IMG/VR virus record: IMGVR_UViG_3300042857_000012
Span: 1-59,211 of that record
Reading direction: 5' to 3' (one strand)
DNA from: a virus
Taxonomy: Duplodnaviria; Caudoviricetes
DNA length: 59,211 nucleotides
Shown: one piece after another, positions 1,691 through 20,372 of the stretch
Layout of the letters: the number at the start of each line of letters is the position of its first letter
How positions within the stretch are numbered: the first letter of the stretch is position 1
Program-made: the position numbers and the translations under genes
Notes under the pieces: generated by a model
What the model saw: only the letters and a program-made list of their open reading frames with translations
Databases searched by the model: none
Told to the model about the DNA's origin: nothing

Positions 1691-1705
1691 CGGAGGCGGG
1701 GCACC

Positions 1706-2822: not shown

Positions 2823-2832
2823 GGGAGCGGGC

Positions 2833-3294: not shown

Positions 3295-3329
3295 CCCTGC
3301 GAGCAGGCTAGCCGGAGGGCGGGCGGTCG

Positions 3330-4493
3330 GTGACGCTGTACCAGATCTGGCCGGCGACGTCCGGTCCCGGCTCGGCCACCGTCGACGGCGGCGTGAACCT
3401 CGCGGTCGAGTTCTACGTCACCGACCCAGGTCTCAGCGCGACCGGGCTGCGGTTCTGGAGGGCGGACACGTCGATCCTCGGGCCGGTCACCGCGCAGATC
3501 TACTCCGTCACCGACGCCAGCTCTGGCACGCCGCTAGCCGGCGCCGACATCACGTTCACCCTGTCCGGCACCGGCTGGCAGACAGCCACCTTCACCGCGC
3601 CGGTCGCGCTCACCGCCAACCAGCGATACCGGGCGGTCTGCAACTTCCCGACGAACTACTCAGCCGACGGCCACTACTGGGACTCCGGGGCAGGCGCCGG
3701 CGGCATCACGCACGGCCCGCTGGTCGCCCCGGATTCGGCGGCAGCGACGGGCGGGGACCAGGGCAGCTTCGTCGTCGGCGGATCGCTGGCGTTCCCGACG
3801 AACCAGTTCAGCTCCGCAAACTACTGGGTCGACGTCAACGTCCAATCAGGACAGACAATCACAGTTGGGCAGGCCGCCGAGACGGACACGGCCGGCCAGA
3901 TCACGGCCAGAAAGACCCGGCCGCTCGGGCAGGCGACCGCCACCGAATCCGGCAGTACCGTCACTGTGACGAAAGTCCGCTCGGTGGGGCAGGCACCGTC
4001 CACCGAGACAGCGACCGCGCTCACGCGGCGGAAGGCCCGGACGGTCGGGCAGGCGCTCACCACGAACACCGCGCAGCCGGTCACCATCCCCACGGACACC
4101 ACGCCGTCCGGATACCCGGACATCGAGCTGGTCCTGTGCGACTTGCTCGCCGACCTCGGCAACACCGGCACCCGCACCCCGGCGGACCTGCAGGACCAGT
4201 TGGAGTTCATCCGGATCCGCCGGGTCGGCGGTTCCGACGATCAGGTCACCGACCGAGCCCGGGTAGACGTCGAGGTGTTCGCCGCGACCCGTGCCGTGGG
4301 GGAGGCGTTGATCGAGGACATCCGGCAACGCCTGTCGGTCCGCGGACCGTTGACGGTGACCTCCGGCGGCCGGCCGGTGGTGGTGGACAGGACGCAGTTG
4401 CTCGCAGGCCCCGTCGAACTCGCCTGGCCGGACCCTGAGGTCCGCATGTTCCACGCGACCTATCAGCTCGAATCCCGGCGGCCGTGGCCGTAA
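3330..4493 (+). CDS. DUF4082-like domain + repeat stalk + tail terminator fusion
   Basis: N-term LAVEF..ATGLRFW..GWQTATFTAPV..FPT..NYWVDV; four ~19-aa xGQA repeats; C-term YPDIE..IRIRRVGGSDD..DRARVDVEVFA; precedes major tail gene. Confidence 0.75.
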   Translation: MTLYQIWPATSGPGSATVDGGVNLAVEFYVTDPGLSATGLRFWRADTSILGPVTAQIYSVTDASSGTPLAGADITFTLSGTGWQTATFTAPVALTANQRYRAVCNFPTNYSADGHYWDSGAGAGGITHGPLVAPDSAAATGGDQGSFVVGGSLAFPTNQFSSANYWVDVNVQSGQTITVGQAAETDTAGQITARKTRPLGQATATESGSTVTVTKVRSVGQAPSTETATALTRRKARTVGQALTTNTAQPVTIPTDTTPSGYPDIELVLCDLLADLGNTGTRTPADLQDQLEFIRIRRVGGSDDQVTDRARVDVEVFAATRAVGEALIEDIRQRLSVRGPLTVTSGGRPVVVDRTQLLAGPVELAWPDPEVRMFHATYQLESRRPWP

Positions 4494-4520
4494 ATCGACA
4501 ACAGGAAGTGAGATCAGGTC

Positions 4521-5186
4521 ATGGTCGGTGTTGCCTACTCGGGCGTCGCGGTGCGGCACTCGGAGTTGATCCGCAAGGCCCTGCAGGGCAGCGTCTTCGT
4601 CGCGCCGTCAACGGCGACGTCGATCACAGCGCTGACGGGCACCGATTCGCTGATCGCGGCTCTCCCCGTCGGGTTCACCGACCTCGGGTACGCCACGAAG
4701 GACGGCACAAGCTTCGACCGCGCGGTGGACGCCAGCGAGACGACGTCCTGGGGTGCCACCGACCCGACCCGCCGGGACATCACCTCGGATGTGGTCACCA
4801 TCCACGTCGTGTGCCAGGAAACCAAGGCCTCGGTCCTGGGTCTGTACATGGGCTTGGACGCGACGACGGCGGTGCCGACATTGGCGTCGGGGGAGGTGGC
4901 GATCGCGAAGCCGCTGCGGCCGCTGAACAGGTTCTACCGCCTACTGACGCTCGGCGTGGACTCGAACACCAGCGGCGAGATCTACATCGCCCGGTACAAC
5001 CCGTACGTGTCGGTGACGTCGCTCGGCACGCAGACCTACCAGGACGGCGAGGAGCTGAAGTACGACATCACCTTCACCGCGTACCCCGATGCGACGCTCG
5101 GCTACTCCGAGAAGATGTTCTACGGCGGCCTCGGCTGGAAGGCGTTGATCACCGCGGGCAACATGGGCTTCGCCGCCCCGGCCTAA
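4521..5186 (+). CDS. major tail protein
   Basis: GSVFVAP, FTDLGYATKDG, SWG..PTRRDITSD, YDITFTAYPD. Confidence 0.9.
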   Translation: MVGVAYSGVAVRHSELIRKALQGSVFVAPSTATSITALTGTDSLIAALPVGFTDLGYATKDGTSFDRAVDASETTSWGATDPTRRDITSDVVTIHVVCQETKASVLGLYMGLDATTAVPTLASGEVAIAKPLRPLNRFYRLLTLGVDSNTSGEIYIARYNPYVSVTSLGTQTYQDGEELKYDITFTAYPDATLGYSEKMFYGGLGWKALITAGNMGFAAPA

Positions 5187-5210
5187 CCGTCCACTCGACC
5201 AGGAGATCAG

Positions 5211-5426
5211 ATGGCTACCACTGCGGACGTCCCGAAGGACGCCGACGGCAACGACGTGCCGGTCCTCGGCCTGTTCGAGCACCCGGAGTCTGGTGCGCAG
5301 GTGTGGGCGCATACCCCCGCCGACGAGGTGCAGTACCAGGCTGAGGGCTGGAAGCCGGTCAAGACCGCGAAGGCGGAGAAGGCCGCCGCGGCGCCGGAGA
5401 AGGGGGCCAGCGGTGGCGGCAAGTAG
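5211..5426 (+). CDS. small hypothetical protein
   Basis: AGGAG RBS; 71-aa ORF after the major tail gene. Confidence 0.65.
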   Translation: MATTADVPKDADGNDVPVLGLFEHPESGAQVWAHTPADEVQYQAEGWKPVKTAKAEKAAAAPEKGASGGGK

Positions 5427-5766
5427 CGGCCGCCGACCGGCCGCCGCGCAGCAGGACAAGCCGGCGCCCGTCTCGCTGAACCTCGACACCCTGGAGCGGG
5501 AGGGCGGCACCCCCGAACCGTTCGTCGTCGTCCTCGCAGGCGAGCGGCTGCTGCTGTCCGACCCGGCCGAGGTGGACTGGCAGAAGCTGATGGCCGCGAT
5601 CCGGGACCCGCACGTGTTCTTCCGGCTGATCATCCCGCCGGACGACCACAAGACGTTCTTCGACGCGACGCTGCCCGGCTGGAAGATGAACAAGCTGATG
5701 CAGTCGTACATGGAGCACTACGGTCTGCCGAGCCCGGGGGAAGCGGTCGCCTCGCCGGCGTCCTGA
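5413..5766 (+). CDS. tail assembly chaperone (gpG-like)
   Basis: Lies between tail tube and tape measure genes; ends at slippery site ...SPGEA. Confidence 0.8.
   Translation: MAASSGRRPAAAQQDKPAPVSLNLDTLEREGGTPEPFVVVLAGERLLLSDPAEVDWQKLMAAIRDPHVFFRLIIPPDDHKTFFDATLPGWKMNKLMQSYMEHYGLPSPGEAVASPAS
5736..5742 (+). other. -1 ribosomal frameshift site G GGG GAA
   Basis: The -1 frame is open from here (GSGRLAGVLTRYGEAIEYDL...) into ORF 5796..6236, giving a gpGT-like product. Confidence 0.8.
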
Positions 5767-6236
5767 CCCGGTACGGCGAGGCGATCGAATACGACTTGGC
5801 GGTCCGCGGCGTCGACCTGGCCCGCGAGTGGCGGTCCCGACGCTGGCGCCGGCTACTCAACCTGATTGACCACCTGCCGGCCCACTCGGCGTACGCCGAG
5901 GCGCTGGCGGCCGATGAGGACTTGGCGGTGGCGGTCCTCGCCCACCCGCAGCCCGACGGGGCAACTGGGCCGCGGGTGAGCGAGTGGACATCGGAGCGGG
6001 CAGCGCTCGCCGAGATCAGCGACAAACTGTCGACTCTGATCGCCGCGACGATCGCGGCGGCCGGGTCCAGACCGCCGAAGCTCATCCCGTCACCGCGGCC
6101 ACGGGTGGCCGCCGACCAGGTGCGTGAGCGGCAGCGCGCCGCAGCGCACCTGTCGCTGGTCGAGCGGGTCCTCCCGGACCGGGCGCAGGCCGACGCCGAG
6201 TTCACGCGCCTGTCCGAGATCGAGGCGACGACGTAG
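5739..6236 (+). CDS. tail assembly chaperone frameshift extension (gpT-like)
   Basis: YGEAIEYDL..GVDL..WRRLLNLIDHLP..S motif typical of actinophage gpT. Confidence 0.8.
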   Translation, partial: GSGRLAGVLTRYGEAIEYDLAVRGVDLAREWRSRRWRRLLNLIDHLPAHSAYAEALAADEDLAVAVLAHPQPDGATGPRVSEWTSERAALAEISDKLSTLIAATIAAAGSRPPKLIPSPRPRVAADQVRERQRAAAHLSLVERVLPDRAQADAEFTRLSEIEATT

Positions 6237-6248
6237 GTCGGGGGTGTC

Positions 6249-9200
6249 GTGGCCGACTACGACGCCGGGCGCGCGTTCCTGCAGATCGTTCCCTCCTTCC
6301 GGGGCGTCCGAGAGTCGATCAAGAAGCAGGCGAAGACGTGGGCCGACGACGTCGAGGGAGCGGTCGAGAAGGCGCTGCCGGAGGGCTTCACCAAGGGCAG
6401 CAAGGCGACTGAGCCGGTCGCGAAGAAGAAGGGCACGGAGACCGGCGAGGCCTACGGCGGGGCGTTCGCGCGGACGGTGAAGACCCGCGTCGAGGCGGCG
6501 CTGAAGGCGCTACCTCCGGTAAAGATCAACGCCGACTCGTCGCTGGTCGACATCAAGCTGGCGGCGATCCGCGCGGAGCTCGCCGATCTGTCGAAACAGA
6601 AGATCGGTGTCGACGTGGACGACGCGACCGCGCTGGCGCAACTGGAACGACTGAAGGCCGAACTGGACCAGATCGGCGCCGACTCCGCGTCGATCCAGGT
6701 CCGCGCCGACACCGCCACAGCGTCGGTCGAACTCGACAAGCTCGCGGCGCAGATCCGTCGCATCGCCGACGACTCACCTACAGTCCAGGTCGATGCCGAC
6801 ACGGGGGCGGCGGACGCGAAGCTCGCCGCGACGGGCGCCGAAGCGGCACGGCTGGGCGCGTCGTCACCGACGATCAGCCCGGACGTCGACTCCGGGCGGG
6901 CGTTGATCGGTATCGCGGTGATCCGGGCGGCGCTGCTCGCGTTGACCGCGGCACCCATCGTGATCCCGATCGCGGTGGCCGGCGCGTCACTCCTCGGCCC
7001 CTTGGCGGCCGCCGGAGCAGGCGCAGCAGGGTTCGGTGCTGTCGCCGCGTCCGGTCTGTCGCGGATTCACACCGCGATGCAGGCGCAGGACGCCGACACC
7101 GGGGGCGGTGGCCGTTCCGCGGCATCGCAGGTATCCGCGACGAACAGCATCCGCCTCGCGCAACTGGGACTCGCCGACGCGCAGCGGGCCGTCGCGGTCA
7201 CTGCTCGGCAGAACGCGCAGGCTCAGGCCCAAGCCGCCGAGCAGGTACGCGCCGCTGAACAGTCGCTGGCCCAGGCGCAGCGGCAGGCCGCCGACGCGCA
7301 GAAGGCGCTCAATCAGGCTCGGGTAGATGCCAAGCGCGGCCTGGAAGACCTCGCGAACAGCCTCGCCGACGCGCAACTCGCGCAACGCCGGGCGCAGGCG
7401 AACCTCCGAGACGCGCAAGCCACCCTGACGGCGGTCCTCGGTGACCCGCGTTCAACCGCGGCGCAGCGAGAAGCCGCGCAGTTGGCCGTGGATGAGGCAA
7501 CGCAGGCGCTGGCCGAACAGGGCCAAGCCGTCAAGCGGTTCGCCGAGGACAAGAAGGCCGCCGACAAGGCTGGGGTTAGCGGATCCGATCGGGTGCTGGC
7601 CGCTGAACGCAGGCTGGCGGACGCCCGGCGGGAGGCGGCGGACAGGCAGCGGGCGTTGTCGAAGGCCCGCGCCGAGCAGGCGTCGGTGGAGCTCCAGAAC
7701 GCCGAGCGGAACATCCAGGCTCAGGAAGGTCTGGTACGCGCGCAACTCGGGCTGGCCTCCGCGCAGGCTTCGGCGGCCGCGGCGCAGGAGTCGGCGGCCG
7801 GCGCAACCAGCAAGCTCGACAAGGCGATGAAGGACTTGACGCCGACCGAACGCGCCGCCTTGGGCGCGTTCCGGGACTTCGGGCAGGCGTACCGGGACTG
7901 GGTCAGCGCGTTGGAGCCGGCGGTGTTCCCAGCGATCCTCGGCGGCCTCGACCTGATCAAGTCGTTGTTTAAGCCGCTGACACCCATCGTCCAGGCCGCA
8001 TCCGGCGCGTTCGTGCAGCTGGAAAAGGACGCGCAGAAGGCGTTGACGTCGCCGTTCTGGAAAGACACCCTGGCGGCTCTCGCGAGGCTCACCGGCCCCG
8101 CGATCCTCGCGTTCGGACACGTCGTCGGGAACGTCATCACCGGGATCGCCGGGATCGGGCGTGCCCTGTCGCCGACCGGCGGTGGGGTCCTGCGGAGCAT
8201 CGAGGGCCTGTCCGAAAAGTTCGCGACCTTCGGGAAGAACGCCAACAAGCCGGGTGGCTTCCAGGACTTCCTGCACTGGGTACGGGAGAACCTCCCCAGG
8301 GCGATCGAGTGGCTCAAGGCGGTCGGCGAGGCGCTGCTACGGATCGGTCGCGCGCTGCTGCCGATCGGTGGCCTTGTCCTCGGCGGGATCAAACTCCTCG
8401 CGGACGTGATCAACGCGATGCCTCCGTCGCTCCTCGGGGCTATCGCTGCTGCCATCATCGCCGTCGCGGCGGCCGTGAAGTTGTGGGCCCTGGCCACCAA
8501 GGCCTTGGTGTTCTTTGAGGCGCTGCTGAACTTGGAGCTAGGCCCGATCATCATCATCATCTTCGGCCTCGCGGCGGCGTTCCTCTATGCCTGGACGCAG
8601 TCCGAGCGATTCCGTGACATCGTCATCGGAGCACTGCTGTACGTCCGAGACACCGCGTTCGGTGCAGGCAGGCTGACCGCGAAGTACATCATCGACCCGA
8701 TCCTGGGCCTGATCGCTTTGCTGCGGACCGCCTGGGCCAACATCAAAACTGTCTTCGCTACCGGCTGGGCCACGGTCAAGACGGTATTCGCCGACGTCTC
8801 CGGGTTCTTCCAGAAGTATTTCATCGGCCCGATCGAGGCGATCCCCGCTGCGGCGAAACGGATCTGGGACGGCATCAAGAAGGTGTTCTATTCGGGCGTG
8901 AACGCCGTGATCGACATCATCAACGGGTTCATCGGCGCGTTCAACTTCTTCTTCTCCAAGTTCGCGCCGACGCAGCGGATCCACTTCGATCTGATCCAGC
9001 ACGTCGGGCAGAAGACCTCGGGCAAGGGCTTCGGTCTTGCCGGCGGCGGGGTGCTGCCCGGGTACGCGCCTGGTGTGGACTCGATCCCGGCGATGCTGTC
9101 ACCCGGTGAGGGTGTGCTGGTTCCGGAGGCGGTCAGGGCGCTCGGCGCCGACTGGATCCTCGGCATCAACGCCGCGTTCAGCCGGCGGCGCCCAGGGACC

Positions 9201-10097
9201 AATGGGGCGTACGCCGGCGGCGGCGTCGTCGGCGACTTCCTCAGCTTGCTGCCGAGTCCGACCAGCGTCCTACCGGGCGTCAGCGGCAAGAGCCTGGTGT
9301 CCGGGCCGGCAGAGCGGATGCAGGCCCAACTGCGTCACGGCGGGGACCTCCCCGGCCGCGTGGGTGGGGCCGTGGCGGGCAGGCTCGCCGACGCGGTGGC
9401 CGCAGCGCTGGACAAGTCCATCAATCTGCTGCCGGCCGTCATGGCTGGCCTGACCGGCGGCGCGGCCCCCGCCGGCGGGGCAGTCTCCCGGTGGTCCGGT
9501 GTCGCCGGGCAGGCGCTGACGCAGCTCGGCCAGTCCACAACGCTGATCAACCCGGTGCTGCAGCTCATCAAGTTCGAGTCCGGCGGCAACCCAACCGCGG
9601 TCAACCGCACCGACATCAACTGGCAGCACGGCACCCCGTCCGTCGGATTGGCGCAGGTGATCGGGCCGACGTTCGCCGGTAACGCCGGCCCGTACCTCGG
9701 CACAGGGCCGTTCCTCTACGGGGTGAGCACGAACCCGCTGGCGAACGTGTTCGCCGGCCTCAACTACGGCATCCGCCGCTACGGGTCCGTCAGCAACATC
9801 CCCGGCATCAGATCCGTCCAGCACGGCGGCCCGTACCTGCCCTACGACCAGGGCGGCTACCTCCCGCCCGGCATGTCGGCAGTGTTCAACGGCACCGGCC
9901 GCCCGGAGCCGGTCCTGTCCGGCGCGCAGTGGGAGACGCTCGCCGGTTCCACCCGTGGCGGCGACGGGCCTATGACGATCTCCGGCACGCTGGACTTGGG
10001 GGATGGGCTGGTGGGCAGGGTGGAGGGCATCATCGACGCCCGCGAACACCAGCAGGCACGGCAGGTCTCCTACGGTCGGCGAGCGGTGGCGGTGTAG
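6249..10097 (+). CDS. tape measure protein with C-terminal lytic transglycosylase (SLT) domain
   Basis: 1282 aa, Ala-rich coiled coil, hydrophobic segments; ESGGNPTAVN..SVGLAQVIGPTF..NYGIRRYG; YDQGGYLPPG..NGTGRPEPVL. Confidence 0.95.
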   Translation: MADYDAGRAFLQIVPSFRGVRESIKKQAKTWADDVEGAVEKALPEGFTKGSKATEPVAKKKGTETGEAYGGAFARTVKTRVEAALKALPPVKINADSSLVDIKLAAIRAELADLSKQKIGVDVDDATALAQLERLKAELDQIGADSASIQVRADTATASVELDKLAAQIRRIADDSPTVQVDADTGAADAKLAATGAEAARLGASSPTISPDVDSGRALIGIAVIRAALLALTAAPIVIPIAVAGASLLGPLAAAGAGAAGFGAVAASGLSRIHTAMQAQDADTGGGGRSAASQVSATNSIRLAQLGLADAQRAVAVTARQNAQAQAQAAEQVRAAEQSLAQAQRQAADAQKALNQARVDAKRGLEDLANSLADAQLAQRRAQANLRDAQATLTAVLGDPRSTAAQREAAQLAVDEATQALAEQGQAVKRFAEDKKAADKAGVSGSDRVLAAERRLADARREAADRQRALSKARAEQASVELQNAERNIQAQEGLVRAQLGLASAQASAAAAQESAAGATSKLDKAMKDLTPTERAALGAFRDFGQAYRDWVSALEPAVFPAILGGLDLIKSLFKPLTPIVQAASGAFVQLEKDAQKALTSPFWKDTLAALARLTGPAILAFGHVVGNVITGIAGIGRALSPTGGGVLRSIEGLSEKFATFGKNANKPGGFQDFLHWVRENLPRAIEWLKAVGEALLRIGRALLPIGGLVLGGIKLLADVINAMPPSLLGAIAAAIIAVAAAVKLWALATKALVFFEALLNLELGPIIIIIFGLAAAFLYAWTQSERFRDIVIGALLYVRDTAFGAGRLTAKYIIDPILGLIALLRTAWANIKTVFATGWATVKTVFADVSGFFQKYFIGPIEAIPAAAKRIWDGIKKVFYSGVNAVIDIINGFIGAFNFFFSKFAPTQRIHFDLIQHVGQKTSGKGFGLAGGGVLPGYAPGVDSIPAMLSPGEGVLVPEAVRALGADWILGINAAFSRRRPGTNGAYAGGGVVGDFLSLLPSPTSVLPGVSGKSLVSGPAERMQAQLRHGGDLPGRVGGAVAGRLADAVAAALDKSINLLPAVMAGLTGGAAPAGGAVSRWSGVAGQALTQLGQSTTLINPVLQLIKFESGGNPTAVNRTDINWQHGTPSVGLAQVIGPTFAGNAGPYLGTGPFLYGVSTNPLANVFAGLNYGIRRYGSVSNIPGIRSVQHGGPYLPYDQGGYLPPGMSAVFNGTGRPEPVLSGAQWETLAGSTRGGDGPMTISGTLDLGDGLVGRVEGIIDAREHQQARQVSYGRRAVAV

Positions 10098-10895
10098 GTG
10101 GTCGCCGCGATCACCGTGACAGCGGACACCGCCAACTCGCGGATCAGCCTCGCCGTCACCGGCGCGACCGGTGGCACCGGCTATATCCGGCGCACCAACC
10201 CTGACGGCTCCGCGAACACGGTGCGGAACGGGGAGCCGGCGACGTTCACCGCGGGCGCGTGGTCGGACTACGACTACGAGGCCCCGATGGACCTCGCCGT
10301 CACCTACCAAGTCCTGTCCTCCGACCAGACGACGGTGCAGGCCACCAGCAGCTCGGTGACGTTGGCCAGCGGCGACAAGACGTGGCTGAAAGACCCGAGC
10401 GTCCCCACGCTGAACTTCGTCTTGAAGGTCACCGCGATGGGGGACCTGTCCCGCGAGCTCCCGATGGGCGTCTTCTACGTCGCGGGCCGCACGTACCCGG
10501 TGGTGACGACGGGCCGCCGGTTCGTGCCCACCGGCGAGGTCGTCTGCTACACCGAGACGTTCGCCGAGCGGCAAGCGATGCTCAACATCCTGTCGTCGGG
10601 CCGGGTCCTGCAACTGTCCACCCCGGACGGGTACGGGTGGGGCGCCTACTACGTCACTGTCGGCACGGTGAACGAGCACCGACCTACACCAATCGCTGAC
10701 AATTCGGTGCGGCACTGGACGCTGCCGCTGACCATCACCGACCGGCCCGCGTACGTGTCGTCGGCCGCGTCGGGGAACACCTGGGGCGACGTGGTATCCA
10801 ACTACGCCACCTGGGCCGACGTTATCCGGCTCAAGGCCACCTGGAACGACCTCATCGCCGCGGTCGCTCCCGCGACGCAGGCCCCGGGAGTCTGA
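10098..10895 (+). CDS. minor tail protein (distal tail-like)
   Basis: Follows the tape measure gene; DYEAP, WLKDP, GRTYPVV motifs. Confidence 0.75.
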   Translation: MVAAITVTADTANSRISLAVTGATGGTGYIRRTNPDGSANTVRNGEPATFTAGAWSDYDYEAPMDLAVTYQVLSSDQTTVQATSSSVTLASGDKTWLKDPSVPTLNFVLKVTAMGDLSRELPMGVFYVAGRTYPVVTTGRRFVPTGEVVCYTETFAERQAMLNILSSGRVLQLSTPDGYGWGAYYVTVGTVNEHRPTPIADNSVRHWTLPLTITDRPAYVSSAASGNTWGDVVSNYATWADVIRLKATWNDLIAAVAPATQAPGV

Positions 10896-10896
10896 G

Positions 10897-12030
10897 GTGT
10901 ACGCGGTGTCGCAGAAGTTCCTGGAGACGATCCGGCGCTCCCACCGGCCGGTGTTCTACGCCGACGTGTACCGCGGCGGCGTCCGGACGACCCCGGCGGC
11001 GTATCAGGCGACGGGACTGCCGCTGGACAAGGGTTCGTCGGTGACGATCGATTGTGGTTCACAGGTCCGCCGGTCCTGTCAGGTGACGATTGCCGACCCT
11101 GCGCTGGACCCGACGACCGCGCAGGCACTACTGGCCCCGTACGGCACCGAGCTGGTGCTGTCCCGGGGCGTGGAGTACCCGGGCGGGGTGATCGAGTGGG
11201 TGCCGCTGGGCTGGTTCCGCATCGACTCCGCGCGGACCTCGAAGTCGGGCCAGCACGGGCCAGCCGGTATTCAGGTGGTCGGCCGGGACCGGTCGGCGTA
11301 CGTCGTGGACGACGAGTTCACCGCGACCGTGGCCTCGACGCAGTCGACTGTGGTCGCGGAGATCCGGGCGCTGATCCTCGACGCGATGCCGTCCCACGTC
11401 ACCGGCCTCCACGACCTCACCGGCGACACCACTGCGTGCCCAGCGCAGGTGTACGACCAGCGGTCCCGCGCCGACGCCATCGATGTCCTCGCTACCGCGA
11501 TCGGCGCCGAGTTCTTCATCGCAGGCGACGGCACCCCGACGTTGAAGCGGATACCGACGGCGGCCACCGCGCCGTCGTGGACGATCGATGCCGGCGTGGC
11601 GGGGGTGCTCATCGAGGCGGACACCAGCGTCGACCGGGGCGTCATCTACAACGGGTGGGTCGTAACGGGGGAGCGCACCGACGGAACCGCCGGGTCCTAC
11701 GCGTTGGTCACCGACACGAACGTTCTGTCGAGCACCTACTGGTCAGGGCCGTTCGGGCGGCGTCCGGGCCGATTTTCGAGCCCGATCCTGACCAGTGATG
11801 CGATGTGTACCGCAGCTGGTACGTCGCTGCTCGCCCGGTCCTCGGCTGCCGGCTGGACCATCGACCTGACCAGCGTCCCGAATCCGGCGCTGGAGGGTTC
11901 CGAGGTAGTCGTAGTGCTTCTCCCCGACGGCCGGCAGCAGTTCCACATCACCGACGGGGTGACGATCCCTCTGGACGTGGAGTCACCGATGCCGGTCCGT
12001 ACCCGCTCGAACAGCCCCACCGGCACGTGA
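10897..12030 (+). CDS. minor tail/baseplate hub protein (DUF5047-like)
   Basis: MYAVSQKFLETIRRSH, LAPYGTEL..RGV..EWVPLGWFRI, GPFGRRP..FSSP, VPNPALE. Confidence 0.8.
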   Translation: MYAVSQKFLETIRRSHRPVFYADVYRGGVRTTPAAYQATGLPLDKGSSVTIDCGSQVRRSCQVTIADPALDPTTAQALLAPYGTELVLSRGVEYPGGVIEWVPLGWFRIDSARTSKSGQHGPAGIQVVGRDRSAYVVDDEFTATVASTQSTVVAEIRALILDAMPSHVTGLHDLTGDTTACPAQVYDQRSRADAIDVLATAIGAEFFIAGDGTPTLKRIPTAATAPSWTIDAGVAGVLIEADTSVDRGVIYNGWVVTGERTDGTAGSYALVTDTNVLSSTYWSGPFGRRPGRFSSPILTSDAMCTAAGTSLLARSSAAGWTIDLTSVPNPALEGSEVVVVLLPDGRQQFHITDGVTIPLDVESPMPVRTRSNSPTGT

Positions 12031-12281
12031 GCGGTCCGGCGCCACTCGCCAGCGCTATCGCCGCGGCGGCGCAGTCGGCGTTGGCCGGCGCGAAGACGTG
12101 GGGGATAGGCACCGTCACCGCGGCCGCCGCCGGCCCGCCCGCCACCGTGACCATCACCTTGCGGGGACAGTCGCTGCCCGGTGTGCATTACCTGACCAGC
12201 TACACCCCGACTATCACCGACAAGGTGCTCGTCCTGACCGGCGGCCAGCAGGTCGTCGTCCTCGGCAAGATCACCGCATAG
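12027..12281 (+). CDS. small minor tail (spike-like) protein
   Basis: GTGA overlap; GTVT..YLTSYTP..DKVLVL..VVLGKI. Confidence 0.65.
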   Translation: MSGPAPLASAIAAAAQSALAGAKTWGIGTVTAAAAGPPATVTITLRGQSLPGVHYLTSYTPTITDKVLVLTGGQQVVVLGKITA

Positions 12282-12291
12282 GAGGGCCCGG

Positions 12292-12951
12292 GTGGCGAAC
12301 ACCCCGATTGCGACGCTGCCGTACCCGGCGCTCACCGACTCCCCGAACGGACCGTCACAGGTCCAGTCGCTGGCGACTGCACTGGATTCACAGGTGGTGC
12401 CACGATTTGCCACCACTGCCGCCCGGGATGCCGCCATCACCGCCCCGGCCGCCGGGCAAATGTGCTGGACCACGACACCGGCGACGCACTGGTACTACAG
12501 CGGCAGCGGGTGGATCATCCTCGGCGGTGGCGCGTATGGCCGGTGCCGGCTCCGCCGGGTCGCCAACCAGTCGGTCCTCACCAACGCCGCCACCGCCATC
12601 TCGTGGGACACCGAAGACGTCGACAGTGGCGGCTACATCACCGCTCCATCCACCACCATCACCATCCCCGCCAGCCTGGACGGCATGTATGCCATCACCT
12701 TCCGTGCCGCCGGCGCCACCCAGCCCACCAACCGCAACTTCGCGGAGATCAACGTAACCAGCGCGCTCACAGGCGTACCGGGCGACTTCCGCATCCCCTC
12801 GACCGGCGGCACCGCAGAAAACCGCATGGTCGCCTACTACAGCGGGCCACTCGCCGCGGGCGACACCTTCGTCTGCAACGTCCTGCACAACGTCGGAAGC
12901 GCCCAAAACTACGTCGGATGGCTGTCCGTCGTCCGCCTCGCGCCGCTCTAG
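12292..12951 (+). CDS. minor tail/receptor-binding protein
   Basis: GGAGG RBS; LPYP..D.P, RFATTAARDAA..P..GQMCW N-terminus; beta-sandwich C-terminus. Confidence 0.7.
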   Translation: MANTPIATLPYPALTDSPNGPSQVQSLATALDSQVVPRFATTAARDAAITAPAAGQMCWTTTPATHWYYSGSGWIILGGGAYGRCRLRRVANQSVLTNAATAISWDTEDVDSGGYITAPSTTITIPASLDGMYAITFRAAGATQPTNRNFAEINVTSALTGVPGDFRIPSTGGTAENRMVAYYSGPLAAGDTFVCNVLHNVGSAQNYVGWLSVVRLAPL

Positions 12952-12961
12952 GAGCCCCGTC

Positions 12962-13246
12962 TTGCCTCCGTCTCCGCAGGTCGTTGTACAACGCACCACC
13001 TCGCTGCAATACGACGGCACCAACGCCACCGCCATCGTTGACCTGCTGACCGATCAATTCCCCCTCACCCCGAACAGTTACTCGGTCGGCGACGAAACCG
13101 ATGGTGTGCTCACCGTCATCACCACCGACCGGGACCTGTGGGCCGACATCGTCGTCAACGAAGGCGATCATGTGGTCGTGAGCTGGAACGGGTTCCAGGT
13201 GACCTCCGACGAGGTGTTCACCGGCCGGTTTGTGCTGCTGCCGTGA
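12962..13246 (+). CDS. hypothetical protein (tail region)
   Basis: AGGAG RBS, TTG start; GTGA overlap with the next gene. Confidence 0.6.
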   Translation: MPPSPQVVVQRTTSLQYDGTNATAIVDLLTDQFPLTPNSYSVGDETDGVLTVITTDRDLWADIVVNEGDHVVVSWNGFQVTSDEVFTGRFVLLP

Positions 13247-14472
13247 CCCTCATCCCGTACGTCGAGATGATCGGGCAGGTCCGCAACAGCCGGTACGTCG
13301 ACACCCGCATGGCGCGGGTCGCGAACAACTCCATGCGGTGGGGCCTGTCCACCTACGTGGCGCCGACGACGTTCGGGAACGCGGAGCACCCGATCCGCGG
13401 GGCGGCGTCGGTGGCAATGCTGGAGGCGGTCGGCATCCAGACGCTGCTGTACGACCCGGCCCTCGCCGGCTTTCCGAGCTACCTGTCCGCGGTGAACCGG
13501 GCCAACTCGCTGCTGATCGCCGTCGACACCGCGCACCGGCAGTACACGACCGGCGGGTGGGGCGGGCAGTGGCAGTCGGCGTGGTGGGCGACGCTCCTCG
13601 GTACCACTGGCTGGATCCAGTGGCGGTACCTGTCCGTACCCGACCGGGAGCGGCTGCTGCAGGTGGTGGAGTACGAGGCCGATCAGCGGCTCGCGCAGCC
13701 ACCCCGATACCTGCGTGATGCCGCTGGAACTGTTCTGACGCCGGGGGACACCGGTGCTGAGGAGAACGCCTGGAACGCCGGCGGGCTGGCGTGCGCGGCG
13801 CTGATGATGCCCGGCCACCCGCGCGCCGGCGACTGGATGACCGCGGCCGTGCAGCTGGCGGTGGCCGCGTTCTCTCACCCTGACGATGTGAGTTCCGGGC
13901 AGGTCGTGAACGGTCGGCCGCTGTCCGAGTGGCTGGACGGATCGAACGTTGAGCAGAGCTACGACGTGGTCAACCACGGCAAGGTCAACCCCGACTACTC
14001 CCAGTCCATCGGCCTGTTCGGGCATACCGCGATCCTGTTCGGGCTGGCTGGGAAGCCGGTGCCGGAGGCGTTCGGGTGGAACGCCGACCGGGTGTACGCG
14101 CGGCTGACCAGCTACTACACGCCGGGGGAGCCGCCGCAGCCCGTCGCCTATCCCGACGGACCGGACTGGGGTGTCCGCCGCTCCGTCTCCTGCTGGTGGC
14201 CCGACACCTGCGCCCAAGTCCTCGGCTGGGACGCGCTCTGCGACCGCCCGGCCGGCTACTGGGCGGATGTCCACCTGGCCGACGCCGACATTCAGCAGGC
14301 CCGGTACACCGACGGGCACCTGTACGCGCCGCTCAACACCGCCAACCCGGCGCTGTCGGAGGACTCCTACCCGGCCCGGGAACAGGTCGGCTGCTACCAG
14401 CTGGCCGCCGGGCATCTGCTGCGCTGGCTCGCTGACCACGACCGGCTCTGGACCACCGACGCGCCGTACTGA
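13243..14472 (+). CDS. Trp/Tyr-rich helical (alpha/alpha-barrel-like) putative glycan-active enzyme
   Basis: GTGA overlap; 409 aa; WQSAWW, GDTGAEENAWNA, NHGKVNPDY; function inferred only. Confidence 0.55.
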   Translation: MTLIPYVEMIGQVRNSRYVDTRMARVANNSMRWGLSTYVAPTTFGNAEHPIRGAASVAMLEAVGIQTLLYDPALAGFPSYLSAVNRANSLLIAVDTAHRQYTTGGWGGQWQSAWWATLLGTTGWIQWRYLSVPDRERLLQVVEYEADQRLAQPPRYLRDAAGTVLTPGDTGAEENAWNAGGLACAALMMPGHPRAGDWMTAAVQLAVAAFSHPDDVSSGQVVNGRPLSEWLDGSNVEQSYDVVNHGKVNPDYSQSIGLFGHTAILFGLAGKPVPEAFGWNADRVYARLTSYYTPGEPPQPVAYPDGPDWGVRRSVSCWWPDTCAQVLGWDALCDRPAGYWADVHLADADIQQARYTDGHLYAPLNTANPALSEDSYPAREQVGCYQLAAGHLLRWLADHDRLWTTDAPY

Positions 14473-14496
14473 ACCGCGAGGCAAGGGGGGCGGGGC

Positions 14497-15015
14497 GTGA
14501 GCGCTTTTCTGATCGCCTTGACGGTGGCGATCCCCGCGTTCCTGGGGCCGTGGATCGCGATCCGCGCGAACGGCCGGGAACGGCGCAAGGACCAAGCGGC
14601 GACGTGGGCGCGGGACGACGAGGTAGCCGCGCAAGCAGCCAAGGCCGCCGAACTGCTCCTCGCGGCCCAGCAGGAGACCATCAAGCGTACGAATGAGGTG
14701 GCGAGGCACGTCGCCGCCGCCACGGCGAAGACCGACGAGAAACTCGATGCGATCCACACCCTTGTGAACAGCGACATGACGGCCGCCCGGCAGTCGGAGC
14801 TGGACCAGACCAGGGTGACGTTGGTGATGCTCCGCAAGGTTGTCGCGCTCGACCACGCTGCTGGTCGCGCTCCATCCGAGCAGGACGTGGCGACGATCGA
14901 AACGACCGAGGCCCGCATCACCGAGCTGCAGGCGATCCTCATGGACCGGTTGGCGCAGCAGCAGGCGGTGGAGGCCGAGACCCGCGCGGCGAGGCTCAGC
15001 ACCGGGGAGCAGTGA
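14497..15015 (+). CDS. membrane protein with coiled coil (lysis region)
   Basis: N-terminal TM segment; IHTLVNSDMT motif; directly upstream of the lysin. Confidence 0.65.
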   Translation: MSAFLIALTVAIPAFLGPWIAIRANGRERRKDQAATWARDDEVAAQAAKAAELLLAAQQETIKRTNEVARHVAAATAKTDEKLDAIHTLVNSDMTAARQSELDQTRVTLVMLRKVVALDHAAGRAPSEQDVATIETTEARITELQAILMDRLAQQQAVEAETRAARLSTGEQ

Positions 15016-15470
15016 CCTCTCCCGCCGACCTCGGCTGGGGTGACCCGCACGTCCTCACCGACGCCGACATGACCGGTGCGCAGCTGTGGCCCGGTCATGT
15101 CGTGCGAGTCCGCAACGACGACGTAGCTGTAGTCGCCGTCGCTCTGGTCCGCCGGTTGCGGACCGCCGGGTGGCAGGGCCCGGATCCGCTGCTGGACGAG
15201 TGGGGTTACGCGCGCCGGCTGAAGCGGTCCGCCGAGGCGAAGTACCGAGCCCAGGGACTCACCGAGGCGCAGTGGCTGCAGCGGGCCGCCCTGTCGGAGT
15301 GGTCCGACCACGCGTGGGGCACCGCGATCGACCTGGACACCGCAGCGAACCCGATGCTGGCCACCCGGCCAGCCGATCCGCAATCCCGCACCACTCGCCC
15401 CGTCGCCGCGTGCCCCGGCATCGCCGCATCCCTCGGATTGGAATGGGGCGGCGCCTGGACGACGCCGTAG
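15012..15470 (+). CDS. endolysin N-terminal M15-family peptidase domain, interrupted by in-frame TAG
   Basis: WGYARR, SDHAWGTAIDL..NP, GLEWGGAW, then TAG; the closing DPQHWQ motif lies after the stop in the same frame. Confidence 0.8.
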   Translation: MTSPADLGWGDPHVLTDADMTGAQLWPGHVVRVRNDDVAVVAVALVRRLRTAGWQGPDPLLDEWGYARRLKRSAEAKYRAQGLTEAQWLQRAALSEWSDHAWGTAIDLDTAANPMLATRPADPQSRTTRPVAACPGIAASLGLEWGGAWTTP

Positions 15471-15542
15471 GACCCCCAGCACTGGCAGGTTGCCGTGACC
15501 CCGCAGCGACTCGCGCAGATAGCGGCACCACTCAGGAGATCC

Positions 15543-16508
15543 ATGGAAGTCCTCGACTACTCATCCGGCTACCCGGCGCCCGCCGCAGTGAAGGCGGCCG
15601 GGTACGCCGGCGTGGTCCGCTACACCGGCACCCCCGGCCGCGGGAAGAACCTGACCCGCGCCGAAGCGCAAGCCATGACCGCCGCTGGTATCCCCGTCGC
15701 GCTCGTCTACGAAGACAGCGCCGGGTGGATGCGCGGGGGAGCGGCGGCGGGGATCGCTGCCGCTCGCGCCGTGCTGGCCGACGCCGCGAACTGCGGGGTC
15801 GGTGTCCGGTGCGTGTACTTCGCCTGTGACGAGGACGTCACCACGCAGATGGCTGTTGTCCTGGCGTGCCTCGACGGCGCCGCAACAGTCCTCGGCAGGA
15901 ACCGCACCGGCGTGTACGGGGAAGCCGACGTCATCGACGCCGCGGTCCCCGGGCACGCCGCGTGGGGCTGGCAGACCCGCGCCTGGTCCGGCGGCCGCGT
16001 CTCCGCGAAAGCGCACCTGCTGCAGCAGATCGGCTACGTCACCGTCGGCGGCATCCAATGCGACCGGAACACCACCCTGAACGACGACTACGGCCAATGG
16101 CCGACCATACAGCGGGGAGACATCATGCTCGACCCAGACGTGAAAGCCTACTTCGACGCCAAATTCCAGGCCGTCGGCGACGGCCTCGGCATCATCATCT
16201 GGGGCGACGAACGCGTCGACACCCCCACCCACGGCGACGGGCACCCAGACAACATTCAGCGAGTCCGCGCAGAGGAGAAAGCCGACGCCGTCCTCGACGC
16301 GACCCGCGACGCGGCGGACGCCGCCCGGGACGTGTCGCTCCTCGCGCAGATCGCCGCGGTGAACGCCCGCCTCGACACCCTCCAGACCGGCGGCGGGGGA
16401 ACCCCCGTCGACCCGGCGGCGGTCGCGGCCGCGCTCGACTACGACCGGCTCGCCGCCGCGCTGGCCCCGCAGCTCGCGAACGTCCTCGGTAAGCGGCTGG
16501 AGTCCTGA
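15543..16508 (+). CDS. endolysin glycoside hydrolase (DUF1906/GH25-like) + C-terminal domain
   Basis: AGGAG RBS, ATG 15543; LDYS..AGYAGVVRY, VYFACDED, TGVYG, WQTRAWSGG, CDRN; same frame as 15012..15470. Confidence 0.85.
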   Translation: MEVLDYSSGYPAPAAVKAAGYAGVVRYTGTPGRGKNLTRAEAQAMTAAGIPVALVYEDSAGWMRGGAAAGIAAARAVLADAANCGVGVRCVYFACDEDVTTQMAVVLACLDGAATVLGRNRTGVYGEADVIDAAVPGHAAWGWQTRAWSGGRVSAKAHLLQQIGYVTVGGIQCDRNTTLNDDYGQWPTIQRGDIMLDPDVKAYFDAKFQAVGDGLGIIIWGDERVDTPTHGDGHPDNIQRVRAEEKADAVLDATRDAADAARDVSLLAQIAAVNARLDTLQTGGGGTPVDPAAVAAALDYDRLAAALAPQLANVLGKRLES

Positions 16509-16575
16509 TGGGCCTGCGCCTGTTCGCCCGCCGCACCGTATCCACCGATCAACCCCGCACCACCACCCGGAAGGC

Positions 16576-16833
16576 ATGACCATGGCCTCACCAATCAAAA
16601 CCAAGGCCACCTACATCCGCGACCTGGTCGAGCGAGTCGCCTCGACGTTCGTGATCACGTTCCTCGGCACGCTGGTCACCGGCGGCTGGTTCGACATCGC
16701 CCACATCCGCGACACCTCCGCGTTGCAGGCCGCCGGGCTCGCCGCCATCGCCGCAGTCCTGTCGCTGATCAAGGGCCTGGTCGCCAAGTTCGTGGCCAAC
16801 CGGGACTCCGCGAGCCTCGCGCCCGGTGTCTGA
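16576..16833 (+). CDS. holin (r1t-like)
   Basis: DLVERVASTF, two TM segments, AAVLSLIKG..SASL; follows the lysin. Confidence 0.8.
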   Translation: MTMASPIKTKATYIRDLVERVASTFVITFLGTLVTGGWFDIAHIRDTSALQAAGLAAIAAVLSLIKGLVAKFVANRDSASLAPGV

Positions 16834-17338
16834 GCCGCTCGCGCATTCCTCCGCGCCCGGGTCGCCGCTACACGGCGACTTCGGGTTGCAGGCCGGCTCC
16901 GGACTGGCCATGTTCCTCGTCCGGGTCGGCACCCTGAGCCGGTGGGGTCATGCCTGCATCGCAGTCGGGGACGCGGCCGGCGGGCAGATCCAGATCGTGG
17001 AGGCCATGCCCGAGGGTGTCCGGACCCGCACCAGCACCGTCGGGTCGTGGGTGTGGTCAAACGTGCCGCTCACCGACGCGCAACGCGACCACATCGCCGG
17101 CACCGCGTTCACCGAGGTCGGGAAGCCCTACGACTGGCCGAGCATCGCCGGGTTCGTCCTACGGCACTTCGGGATGCACCTACGCGGGAAGCGGTCGAAG
17201 GATCACCCGGATGACAGCTTGATCTGTTCGGAGCTGGCCGCCTGGAGTTATCGGGAGGCTGGCGTCGACCTGTTCCCTGACGTAGCTCCTGGCGATGTGG
17301 CTCCTGGCGACTTGGCCGAATACCTCGTCGTGCACTGA
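16826..17338 (+). CDS. permuted papain-like NlpC/P60 (YiiX/YebB-like) enzyme
   Basis: GD..HACI..VEA..GKPYDW..ICSELAAWSY..AGVDL..VAPGDL (His precedes Cys). Confidence 0.8.
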   Translation: MSEPLAHSSAPGSPLHGDFGLQAGSGLAMFLVRVGTLSRWGHACIAVGDAAGGQIQIVEAMPEGVRTRTSTVGSWVWSNVPLTDAQRDHIAGTAFTEVGKPYDWPSIAGFVLRHFGMHLRGKRSKDHPDDSLICSELAAWSYREAGVDLFPDVAPGDVAPGDLAEYLVVH

Positions 17339-19211: not shown

Positions 19212-20372
19212 TCAGTCCTCGAGGTAGTCGGCCAGCTTGTAGCCGGCGGCGCGCTCGAGCTTGCCGCGCGCCCGGTCGTAGCGGCGGGTGGTCCGCGGGT
19301 CCTTGTGTCGGGCCGAGTCCTGCATGTCCCGCAACGACACCCCGGCGTCCAGGCCGAGAGTCACGAATGCGTGCCGCAGCATGTGCGGGGTCAGCCGCAC
19401 CGGCAGCCCGGCGCGTTTGCCAACCCGCTCCACCGCGAGCTCAGCCTGCCGGTGGTTCAGGGGACGGCCGCCGGGGTTAGCCAGCAGTGGCCCGGTCAGA
19501 TCCTCGAGGTCGACCCCGGCCGCGGCGGCGCGCGCCTCGAGCAGCCGGTCGATCGCCGCGATAGTCGGGCGGGGGATCGCCACCTCCTGCGTCTCCCCGC
19601 CCTTCCCGGTGATCCGGATGATGCGGTGGCCGCTCGAGGCGCCCACGTGCTCGACGTCGACCCCGACGGCCTCGAAGGTGCGCAGGCCGCAGTGGACCAT
19701 CAACGACAGCAGCACCGCCTCGAGCGGGCTACCCACGCGGGTGGCCGCATACCAAACCTGCTGCACCTGATCTTTCGTAAGGCCGACTGTGGGGGAGAAG
19801 TCCGGATCCACTCGAGGTCGGGTGGCGTGCTTGACGGGGTTGTGGTCGGCGATGTCTTCGGCCTCGAGGTAGGCGTACAGCGAACTGACCGCAGCCAACC
19901 GCCGGGCGACCGTCGTGGGTCGAGCCGGCGCTACGTCCTCGGTGCCGCGGCGCTGGTGTTCCGACCAGGCATCAACGTGCCGCCGGCGGGCCTCGAGGAG
20001 ATGGCAGCCCGCGTGCTCGAGCCACGGCAGCCAACCAACATCGTCAGCGCGTGGCTCGAGCCCCTTGCCGGTGAGGCTGAGTCCGAGGTCGTTGGCGTAC
20101 GCCTTGCGGGTGTTCGGGGACTGGACGGACAACAGCCACGCGAGGATCACGCCGCGCAGGTCGTCGTCGGCGAGCACATCGCGCACGGCCAGTGCTCGAA
20201 CCGGACCCTCCCCATCCCCAACGTGGATAACGTGAATTATGCCCGTGGGTGGGGAGGGGTTCGGGCTCGAGGTGCCCACGGCATGCTCCTGAGAATCCGC
20301 ATTCCCGGGCCCGATGTAGTGGGGGTCGGAAGTGGTGCCCGGCCCATCTTGCGGAGTATGTACGTCAGCCAC
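19212..20372 (-). CDS. tyrosine recombinase (XerC/D-like resolvase); start uncertain
   Basis: SPNTRKAY..DL, TVARRLAAVSSLY, GLRTFE, GKGG, PHMLRHAF, ARHKDPRTTRRY (R-K-H-R-H-Y intact). Confidence 0.93.
   Translation of the reverse strand: MADVHTPQDGPGTTSDPHYIGPGNADSQEHAVGTSSPNPSPPTGIIHVIHVGDGEGPVRALAVRDVLADDDLRGVILAWLLSVQSPNTRKAYANDLGLSLTGKGLEPRADDVGWLPWLEHAGCHLLEARRRHVDAWSEHQRRGTEDVAPARPTTVARRLAAVSSLYAYLEAEDIADHNPVKHATRPRVDPDFSPTVGLTKDQVQQVWYAATRVGSPLEAVLLSLMVHCGLRTFEAVGVDVEHVGASSGHRIIRITGKGGETQEVAIPRPTIAAIDRLLEARAAAAGVDLEDLTGPLLANPGGRPLNHRQAELAVERVGKRAGLPVRLTPHMLRHAFVTLGLDAGVSLRDMQDSARHKDPRTTRRYDRARGKLERAAGYKLADYLED
20220..20247. other. dif/Xer-like recombination core site
   Basis: AACGTGGATAA-CGTGAA-TTATGCCCGTG: 11-6-11 layout, arms 8/11 inverted identity, ATAA-N6-TTAT core. 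Confidence 0.55.

Follow-up and report, generated by a model that had tools for sequence, protein, structure and literature searches.

Our analysis of a 59,211-nt stretch of phage DNA (the window) indicates that its endolysin gene has probably lost a domain through a single nonsense mutation. The original fused lysin, an M15 zinc peptidase joined to a glycoside hydrolase (GH), would thereby have become a GH-only lysin preceded by a dead upstream remnant, with the in-frame TAG acting as an ordinary terminator. We consider this explanation, including its element that the mutation arose recently and is, to date, private to this phage, to be fairly likely as a whole. The window is most of the genome of a temperate soil actinophage: the record is linear, 79% complete (CheckV) and comes from a bulk soil metagenome, and two tyrosine recombinase genes above the Pfam cut-off mark it as a temperate element.

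An amber codon interrupts a two-domain endolysin gene

The region from 15012 to 16508 on the plus strand consists of 152 codons, a TAG at 15468–15470, 345 further codons and a TGA, which amounts to 498 codons if the TAG is read through. The GTG start at 15012 overlaps the TGA of the upstream gene (GTGA). The 498-codon gene comprises an M15 zinc peptidase, an Rv2525c-like GH domain and a C-terminal tail; its first ORF (15012–15470), which holds the M15 (VanY-like) domain, ends at the TAG in the context WGGAWTTP-TAG-DPQH. The 24 in-frame codons that follow (15471–15542) encode D-P-Q-H, the end of the peptidase fold (its last strand and helix) and the linker, and stay untranslated unless the TAG is read through. 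The original prediction, that an in-frame TAG sits in a 498-codon frame running into a DUF1906 domain, agrees with the sequence, and the downstream part matches PF08924 (E 1.5e-19). A protein collection search returned 18 uninterrupted fused M15-GH proteins of 459–537 aa, with up to 84% identity locally and 73% over the alignment. As these two-domain proteins align across the site, the open frame past the TAG is not a chance occurrence. The lysin is adjoined by a holin gene (16576–16833, plus strand) with matches to phrog_443 holin (3.8e-13) and to PF16945 (Phage_r1t_holin, 29.7 bits).

The stop codon separates the peptidase from its third zinc ligand

In the 152-aa product, residues 96–151 match Peptidase_M15_4 (PF13539; E 4.4e-11, 43.6 bits, Pfam cut-off 25). 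The match spans profile positions 5–61 of 70 and ends there because the TAG cuts the domain. His100 (15309–15311) and Asp107 (15330–15332) form an H-x6-D motif without variation in two alignments, of 17 and 21 sequences, and pair in the alignment with the H-x6-D of Ply500 (2vo9), whose His and Asp are zinc ligands. The third zinc-ligand residue, His157 of the D-x-x-H that follows W-G-G-x-W, lies at 15480–15482; it is present in the reading frame, pairs with the last His of Ply500 (2vo9), and is absent from the 152-aa product. Since the stop precedes this His by four codons, the product should be inactive: the fragment would lack both its third ligand and the fold's last strand, and peptidase activity should be lost. 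The earlier suggestion of a truncated peptidase deprived of its third zinc ligand is thus backed both by the Pfam match that stops short and by the pairing with 2vo9.

An AF2 model of the read-through peptidase domain (pLDDT 89.8) gave VanY, VanXY, LdcB, VanX, Ply500 and Hedgehog-N as top structural matches, with Z scores of only 5.8–7.5 and Foldseek E-values of 3e-3 or weaker. The alignments of this model to LdcB, VanY, VanX and Ply500 extend to model residues 162–170, past the stop. The domain resembles LAS/M15 peptidases such as Ply500 (2vo9), VanY, VanXY and LdcB in its H-x6-D and D-x-x-H motifs and its Pfam match, but identity to them is 11–18% and here the last ligand lies outside the translated product.

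Most homologues carry tryptophan at the site

The original prediction had offered three explanations for the stop: readthrough, a recent TGG>TAG nonsense mutation and a sequencing error. A comparison of Trp versus stop in homologues at the protein level favours the second. Among 36 aligned homologues, 30 have Trp at the site, 2 Tyr and 3 Lys, one has a gap, and none (0/36) has a stop. Trp accounts for 15/16 sequences in the first alignment (Tyr 1/16) and for 15/20 in the alignment of fused homologues (Tyr 1, Lys 3, gap 1). A TGG>TAG change is the simplest origin of the amber codon, because Trp dominates at the site and a single G>A transition suffices. The accompanying idea that the mutation attenuates lysis in a phage with a non-lytic spread route found no support.

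We observed 2 private changes in the peptidase part at 80 sites that are invariant in 11 close homologues, compared with 0–4 when each homologue was tested likewise, and none at the 14 invariant sites in the codons after the TAG. Judged by these substitutions, the peptidase part shows no decay.

Neither megablast nor blastn detected related DNA among 50,697 phage records, and tblastn gave nothing beyond GH-part matches at ≤42% identity and a single peptidase-part match at 39%. No locus exceeded 59% identity in viral, metagenome or genome contig collections, and the comparison with the 66–73% identical fused homologues is thus one of proteins. A degenerate DNA motif pattern with the TAG fixed matched 0 stretches in viral contigs (the window's own record excluded), and no protein fragments of 30–96 aa ending at the same stop were found. 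A 247-nt contig from soil run X2 (∼92% identical) covers 15299–15545, and no change at 15468–15470 is among the differences listed for it. The same holds for the differences listed for the aligned contigs of all four runs, which give no evidence either way. If the X2 relative does share the TAG, the mutation would be older than recent and private, and its maintenance would need explaining.

A probable internal start at the domain boundary

A Shine-Dalgarno-like AGGAGA (15534–15539) precedes an in-frame ATG at 15543 by 3 nt (local sequence CTC AGG AGA TCC ATG); the 4-nt spacer from AGGAG to the ATG is at the short end of the range seen in the window's other genes. In frame, the element is read as the rare Arg codons AGG and AGA, the two rarest among 1176 Arg codons (49 and 13 occurrences, respectively), and AGG-AGA occurs in 0/121 Arg-Arg pairs. 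No other in-frame AGGAG-N3-9-ATG is present inside the 97 predicted genes. The putative internal start thus combines a Shine-Dalgarno-like sequence with an ATG in frame, is located at the domain boundary, and uses the same stop codon as the long ORF. The original prediction had overlooked the AGGAGA-ATG at 15534–15545, from which a stand-alone GH lysin could be made in full.

The resulting 321-codon ORF (15543–16508, plus strand) encodes the Rv2525c-like GH domain and the C-terminal tail. The domain match (PF08924, Rv2525c_GlyHyd-like, DUF1906) scores 71.3 bits against a cut-off of 27.2 and covers profile positions 2–196 of 198, and the product matches the phrog_13480 endolysin family (8.7e-27). 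D182 and D273 are among the acidic residues invariant in 21 sequences. GH-only proteins from metagenomes make up 57 of the 79 matches, and in 14 of 15 that were inspected an LDYS motif is found at residues 4–7, as in the 321-aa product; in the exception, P0048, it is at residue 20. The stand-alone protein P0033 and the 321-aa product are collinear over their whole lengths (61% identity), and ATG 15543 coincides with the N-termini of the stand-alone GH homologues. In each of the 20 aligned fused homologues, a Met (17 sequences) or a Val (3 sequences) stands no more than one position away from the domain junction. The 321-aa GH-plus-tail protein starting at ATG 15543 is therefore the probable working endolysin, the lysin activity of Rv2525c-like domains itself resting on annotation. 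A restart at GTG 15495, which would give a 337-aa ORF, was also considered; it is less likely than ATG 15543 because it has no comparable Shine-Dalgarno sequence and is off the N-termini of the stand-alone homologues.

A proposed route from a fused to a GH-only lysin

According to the model that we favour, the ancestral endolysin gene would have been one 498-codon ORF for an M15 (VanY-like, LAS-fold) peptidase, a GH domain and a tail. A single G>A change, four codons ahead of the third zinc-ligand His, would then have turned the conserved TGG into TAG. Ribosomes starting at GTG 15012 would release a 152-aa fragment that has presumably lost peptidase activity, and ribosomes binding the AGGAGA at 15534–15539 would start at ATG 15543, the N-terminal boundary of the GH domain. 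The internal start would yield a 321-aa GH-plus-tail protein with the layout of the stand-alone lysins of other actinophages, and this protein, together with the neighbouring holin, probably still lyses the host. On this model, 15543–16508 should be annotated as the lysin and 15012–15470 as a truncated remnant.

The same mutation could instead mark a dead end. Metagenomics would then have caught a prophage that is defective, or a variant that is not viable, in which the internal ATG is underused, lysis is lost or badly impaired and the lysin is becoming a pseudogene. Prophage grounding commonly begins with nonsense mutations in lysis genes, and a temperate element with two recombinase genes, known from an incomplete linear record of bulk soil, would fit this reading; moreover, lysins of the amidase_2 or cutinase families were not found elsewhere in the window. 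However, no other homology-supported broken gene was seen in the window. Among the other in-frame stops, TAG 1688, 6234 and 10095 turned out to be ordinary gene boundaries (TGA 14470 is outside this count). Neither lysin domain shows decay, the holin is intact, and so are the Shine-Dalgarno sequence with its ATG and the full GH-plus-tail ORF, which is collinear with natural stand-alone lysins. We thus regard a decaying element as unlikely.

The allele is found in several assemblies

The original prediction had also named a sequencing error as a possible cause of the stop. Assemblies from IMG/VR, JGI, ENA and Logan all yield the identical 152-aa product, and a 14,970-nt Logan contig of run X1 (k-mer depth 8.3) is identical over 14400–16700, i.e., 2301 bases. 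With separate pipelines in agreement and an identical Logan contig, an error is unlikely. All TAG-bearing assemblies may stem from one sample, with X1 flagged as a possible source; the allele is thus not placed in independent populations. No RNA runs are among the sequencing runs listed with the sequence.

A related view is that the TAG arose as an artefact of sequencing or assembly, or that the assembler fixed a minority allele, in a population that truly carries TGG. The stop is one base away from a conserved codon, the holders of the exact sequence may share one origin, and the allele is known from contigs, which hide minor variants and drop rare ones. Against this stand the identical product obtained by different pipelines, the Logan contig without a difference at its depth, and the nature of the change, which is a substitution outside a homopolymer and not an indel. 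We consider an artefact improbable.

TAG is a working terminator in this phage

The remaining explanation of the original prediction, programmed or suppressor-dependent readthrough or TAG recoding, is not supported. TAG terminates 13 of the 96 complete predicted genes. Two of these codons lie among the tail genes, where TAG 6234–6236 ends the T part of the tail assembly chaperone and TAG 10095–10097 ends the tape measure, and each is followed by a next gene in the same frame that matches a separate family. TAG is thus a working terminator in the late genes, and efficient suppression would fuse three tail proteins, since the next genes share the frame. Of the window's TAGs, only the one in the lysin is spanned by homologues. 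ARAGORN detected 0 tRNA genes in the 59,211 bases, as the original prediction had stated for suppressor tRNAs in the window, the record being 79% complete. The window likewise has 0 Rfam matches, and there is no unusual RNA fold around the TAG (z 0.29).

Functional readthrough would require either a leaky context or a suppressor tRNA, supplied by the host or by the part of the genome outside the record, so that some full-length lysin is made beside the GH isoform and lysis is tuned. The absence of private changes at the 14 invariant sites after the stop would fit such a scenario, but a very recent mutation would account for it just as well. Tyr at the site in one homologue per alignment suggests that the position tolerates a second aromatic residue. 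In addition, 21% of the genome lies outside the record (CheckV), and the ∼92% identical X2 relative has no change at the codon among those listed. Recoding of late and lysis genes has also been described for gut phages (bioRxiv 10.1101/2021.08.26.457843). In gut phages with a reassigned TAG, the codon is read as Gln (code 15). The present case resembles them in that the phage is uncultured and a lysis gene contains an in-frame TAG. In contrast, here a single gene is affected, neighbouring late genes end in TAG and are followed in frame by the next gene, the hosts fall within high-GC soil actinobacteria, the homologues have Trp and not Gln at the site, and neither a tRNA, an Rfam element nor a stable local structure is present in the window. 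Readthrough of this kind is therefore improbable as well.

In a more specific version, the TAG would be common to the ∼92% relative and maintained, and in this family of fused M15-GH lysins the leaky amber together with a conserved internal start would set the ratio of full-length (rare) to GH-only (abundant) lysin. We regard this as very improbable; if true, a maintained leaky TAG would represent stop-codon tuning of lysis in a high-GC actinophage with an otherwise standard code.

Two other ways past the stop were rejected: the other frame open across the site (15086–15829) would not restore D-x-x-H after a frameshift, and pyrrolysine-type decoding is disfavoured by its known distribution and by the use of TAG to end other late genes.

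Comparison with known lysin systems

A close parallel is LysA of mycobacteriophage Ms6, which is described as two forms, Lysin384 and Lysin241, the short one in frame with its own ribosome-binding site and a common stop (PMC3111421, PMC3314691). Ms6 mutants making only the shorter or only the longer lysin are reported to be viable (PMC3111421), and internal lysin starts are reported to be frequent in phages of Gram-positive hosts (PMC9430671). The lysin analysed here shares with Ms6 LysA a predicted second, shorter in-frame product with a ribosome-binding site and the same stop codon. In contrast to Ms6, the long form is cut by a stop, so that only the short form is possible without readthrough; moreover, the domains are an M15 peptidase and an Rv2525c-like GH instead of an amidase, and the two polypeptides are predicted from sequence.

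The domains of actinophage lysin A are described as fused in some phages and encoded by separate genes in others (PMC5559632). Gordonia phage Camerico (Cluster DF is cited alongside) is annotated with split lysin A genes 32 and 34, and at another locus (L008) a complete peptidase gene (239 aa) and a GH gene are separate, each with its own tail. Such split genes encode complete domains, whereas here the first ORF ends inside the M15 domain. Because it ends before the last zinc ligand, it represents a truncation and not a clean split.

Stand-alone DUF1906 lysins, such as lysin A of Mycobacterium prophage prophi91-3 and the DUF1906 protein of Rhodococcus phage P19, are similar to the 321-aa product in layout, length and position after the tail genes and beside the holin. 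The annotated prophi91-3 lysin A (324 aa) has the GH domain at its N-terminus, and genes for lysin B and a holin come next. Unlike the lysin studied here, the prophi91-3 and P19 genes have no in-frame upstream peptidase remnant, and identity to DUF1906 lysins of cultured phages is ≤42%, in the GH domain only.

Implications for modular phage lysins

If our reading is right, little changes for the genetics of these phages: no recoding is needed in soil actinophages, and the nonsense allele of this modular lysin has the look of an ordinary mutation rather than of a new reading of the code. The allele would then be a natural snapshot of domain loss in modular endolysins: with a start already present inside the gene, at the domain boundary, one step is enough to turn a fused gene into a stand-alone GH lysin. 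The finding also draws attention to fused M15-Rv2525c-like lysins as an uncultured family. Since each of the 20 aligned members has a Met or Val at the junction, production of two isoforms, as in Ms6 LysA, may be routine in this family.

An amber codon divides a formerly continuous lysin gene

Reading positions 15012–16508 (+) bore out the original prediction of an in-frame amber codon in an endolysin gene: 152 codons precede a TAG (15468–15470) lying between the residues W-G-G-A-W-T-T-P and D-P-Q-H, and beyond the TAG the frame stays open for another 345 codons, up to a TGA. Pfam searches likewise agreed with both proposed domain identities. The VanY-like zinc peptidase (M15) family Peptidase_M15_4 matches residues 96–151 of the 152-aa product (E-value 4.4e-11, 43.6 bits), ending at profile position 61 of 70, and Rv2525c_GlyHyd-like (DUF1906), a glycoside hydrolase (GH) domain, matches the part downstream of the stop (E-value 1.5e-19).

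Querying with the 498-aa read-through, in which X takes the place of the stop, gave 79 protein hits. Both Pfam domains are present in a single chain in 18 of them (459–537 aa), two have the same peptidase fused to a GH25 domain and 57 are GH-only (276–340 aa); the remaining two are a peptidase-only protein and the window's own 321-aa product. The nearest fused proteins share 66–73% identity along the aligned length, with local values as high as 84%. A second search with a 177-aa peptidase query yielded 16 peptidase-plus-tail proteins of 231–300 aa. Sequence comparison thus indicates that the lysin gene was formerly one ORF. The homologues originate from soil metagenomes, with distant ones in Actinomycetota genomes, and no cultured phage with a fused M15-Rv2525c-like lysin was found in the collections searched, which makes this family a small novelty.

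In the window, the GH domain is followed by a C-terminal tail (16107–16505), which comes straight after the peptidase in the peptidase-only homologues P0002–P0017 (47 residues align with P0009 at 32% identity). At locus L008 (4001–5559), a peptidase gene lies next to a GH gene, and the tails at their ends are nearly identical. The tail has no Pfam match and is a mobile module, which may serve in wall binding or in oligomerisation.

The stop is probably an ordinary nonsense mutation

The residue at the stop column is Trp in 15/16 proteins of the peptidase alignment (Tyr in the other) and in 15/20 of the fused alignment, where one Tyr, three Lys and one gap make up the rest, the Lys and gap rows belonging to a second M15 subtype. 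A stop occurs at this column in none of the 36 aligned homologues, and one G>A transition is enough to turn TGG into TAG. Among the explanations first proposed, a TGG>TAG nonsense mutation is therefore favored by the ancestral Trp and the single transition, and programmed or suppressor-dependent readthrough is disfavored, as other genes of the window terminate at TAG.

To estimate the age of the mutation, we scored private changes at positions where the 11 closest fused homologues all agree, treating each homologue likewise. The window has 2/80 such changes before the stop, 0/14 after it and 2/88 in the GH domain, compared with 0–4, 0–1 and 0–7, respectively, in the homologues. The peptidase part is undecayed, so the mutation is recent on this scale or, less likely, the region is still under selection. 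Both private peptidase changes are adjacent (A125S and H126R, residues 125–126, 15384–15389) and are also present in the more distant homologues P0031 and P0032, a patch which hints at a small recombination event.

An identical 152-aa product is on record in Logan and ENA (24,437-base contig) and in JGI (two contigs, the longest 23,806 bases), and a Logan contig from sequencing run X1 (14,970 bases, depth 8.3) matches the window at each of the 2301 bases compared. Because X1 was flagged as a possible source sample, this agreement is one between assemblers rather than between independent populations. The evidence consists of assembled contigs, and a minor TGG allele may exist at the site. A 247-base contig from a different soil run, X2, covers 15299–15545 with 20 differences; among the nine listed, seven are at third codon positions and none is at 15468–15470. 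The two listed differences past the stop, at 15484 and 15485, change Trp158 to Phe, which is the residue of most homologues there.

Recoding of the lysin TAG is unlikely. In our gene map, a rough GC-frame heuristic rather than the output of a trained gene finder, the 96 complete predicted genes end in TGA (80), TAG (13) or TAA (3). The tail assembly chaperone's T part terminates at TAG 6234–6236 and the tape measure at TAG 10095–10097; from each of these stops the frame continues into the following gene without another stop, and these downstream genes match separate families, namely families of tape measure proteins and one tail protein family of 270 positions, matched at 36–267. Efficient late suppression would hence join the chaperone to the tape measure and the distal tail protein. 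The window contains no tRNA genes, in line with the earlier statement that no suppressor tRNA was seen in it, and no Rfam families, and the 121 nt around the TAG fold no better than shuffles (z 0.29). According to published abstracts, gut phages that reassign TAG read it as Gln, whereas the homologues have Trp at this site. Taken together, these observations make programmed or suppressor-dependent decoding improbable, and the case falls outside the class of recoded phages; trace near-cognate readthrough may occur.

By the same heuristic map, the structural and lysis block (1–17338) has 24 predicted genes, of which 7 (the lysin fragment among them) end in TAG, versus 6/73 elsewhere; the cases checked are ordinary gene ends. 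The TAG at 1688, a same-frame junction coding-like on both sides, proved to be an ordinary boundary ahead of the head-tail adaptor.

Predicted loss of peptidase activity

Ply500 (2vo9) was the sole solved structure found by sequence. Its alignment pairs H100 and D107 of the window with the H-x6-D of Ply500, and the His four residues past the TAG with the last His of Ply500; in Ply500 these three residues bind zinc. The proposal that the truncated peptidase lacks the third zinc ligand is thus supported. The read-through domain as modelled by AlphaFold2 (pLDDT 89.8) matches LdcB, VanY, VanXY, VanX and Ply500 with middling scores (Z 5.8–7.5), so that we regard the fold as consistent rather than proven; the alignments extend to model residues 162–170, past the stop. 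Lacking one ligand as well as the final strand and helix, the 152-aa product should be inactive, and peptidase activity would be lost through the TAG.

Genome setting

The window is an entire IMG/VR virus record of 59,211 bases, linear and, by CheckV, 79% complete; its G+C content is ~70% from end to end. No close cultured phage was found in the collections searched. The gene order starts inside the major head protein and runs through head-tail adaptor, major tail, tail assembly chaperone, tape measure (1282 aa), minor tail and lysin to holin. Two tyrosine recombinase (Phage_integrase) genes, at 19212–20186 (−) and 32472–33374 (+), score above the Pfam cut-off; the phage is thus probably temperate and carries a second recombinase.

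Upstream of the tape measure gene, an ORF at 5413–5766 (117 aa) overlaps a −1-frame ORF open at 5427–6236, whose distal part matches tail assembly chaperone families (profile positions 133–262 of 270); the pair appears to have the usual G / G-T layout of programmed −1 frameshifting. The C-terminal third of the tape measure (6249–10097; residues ~863–1228) also matches phrog_971, annotated as endolysin (7e-30), and may harbour a motif resembling cell-wall hydrolases, of the kind embedded in tape measures of other actinophages. ORFs 13243–14472 (409 aa) and 14497–15015 (172 aa) share a frame, separated by TGA 14470–14472 and 24 nt, and have no PHROG or Pfam match, alone or read through with X.

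The holin gene (16576–16833) is located downstream of the lysin. Its end overlaps by 8 nt a gene at 16826–17338 that matches phrog_1128 (annotated enoyl-CoA hydratase/carnithine racemase-like; 1e-25) and no Pfam family, an odd partner for a lysis cassette. Neither lysin B (cutinase) nor amidase_2 was found in the window.

A probable internal start for a GH lysin

The 24 codons past the stop end in CTC AGG AGA TCC ATG, placing an AGGAGA (15534–15539) 3 nt upstream of an in-frame ATG at 15543, which the original prediction overlooked. Among the 1176 Arg codons of the window, AGG (49) and AGA (13) are used least, AGG-AGA accounts for 0/121 Arg-Arg pairs in predicted genes, and no other in-frame AGGAG-N3-9-ATG occurs inside the 97 predicted genes (47,097 coding bases). 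The 4-nt spacer from AGGAG to ATG is short relative to other window genes. The ATG coincides with the N-termini of stand-alone GH lysins: an LDYS motif is found at residue 4–7 in 14/15 GH-only lysins examined, at residue 20 in the homologue P0048, and at residue 4 in the window product. The 321-aa product (15543–16508) and P0033, a homologue encoded on a 56-kb contig, are 61% identical in an alignment spanning residues 2–312, and in Mycobacterium prophage prophi91-3 the annotated lysin A (324 aa) starts with the GH domain, with lysin B and holin genes next. At the domain junction, within one position, 17/20 fused homologues have Met and 3/20 Val, both GH25 fusions included. Thus, ATG 15543 looks like a real internal start, at which translation would initiate, and fused genes of the M15-GH family would carry such a start.

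Internal starts have been reported as frequent in endolysin genes (PMC9430671), and mycobacteriophage-type lysin domains are described as separate genes in some Gordonia phages (PMC5559632), as they are in the annotation of Camerico. The window gene is similar in layout to a split lysin A, but lies outside that definition because its first ORF encodes an incomplete domain. It rather resembles a two-isoform lysin gene whose long isoform is gone; Ms6 mutants with only the shorter in-frame lysin are reported to be viable with altered lysis timing (PMC3111421; PMC3314691). The internal start would still yield a complete GH-plus-tail lysin, which together with the holin may be lytically competent, and the phage would be viable with a GH-only lysin.
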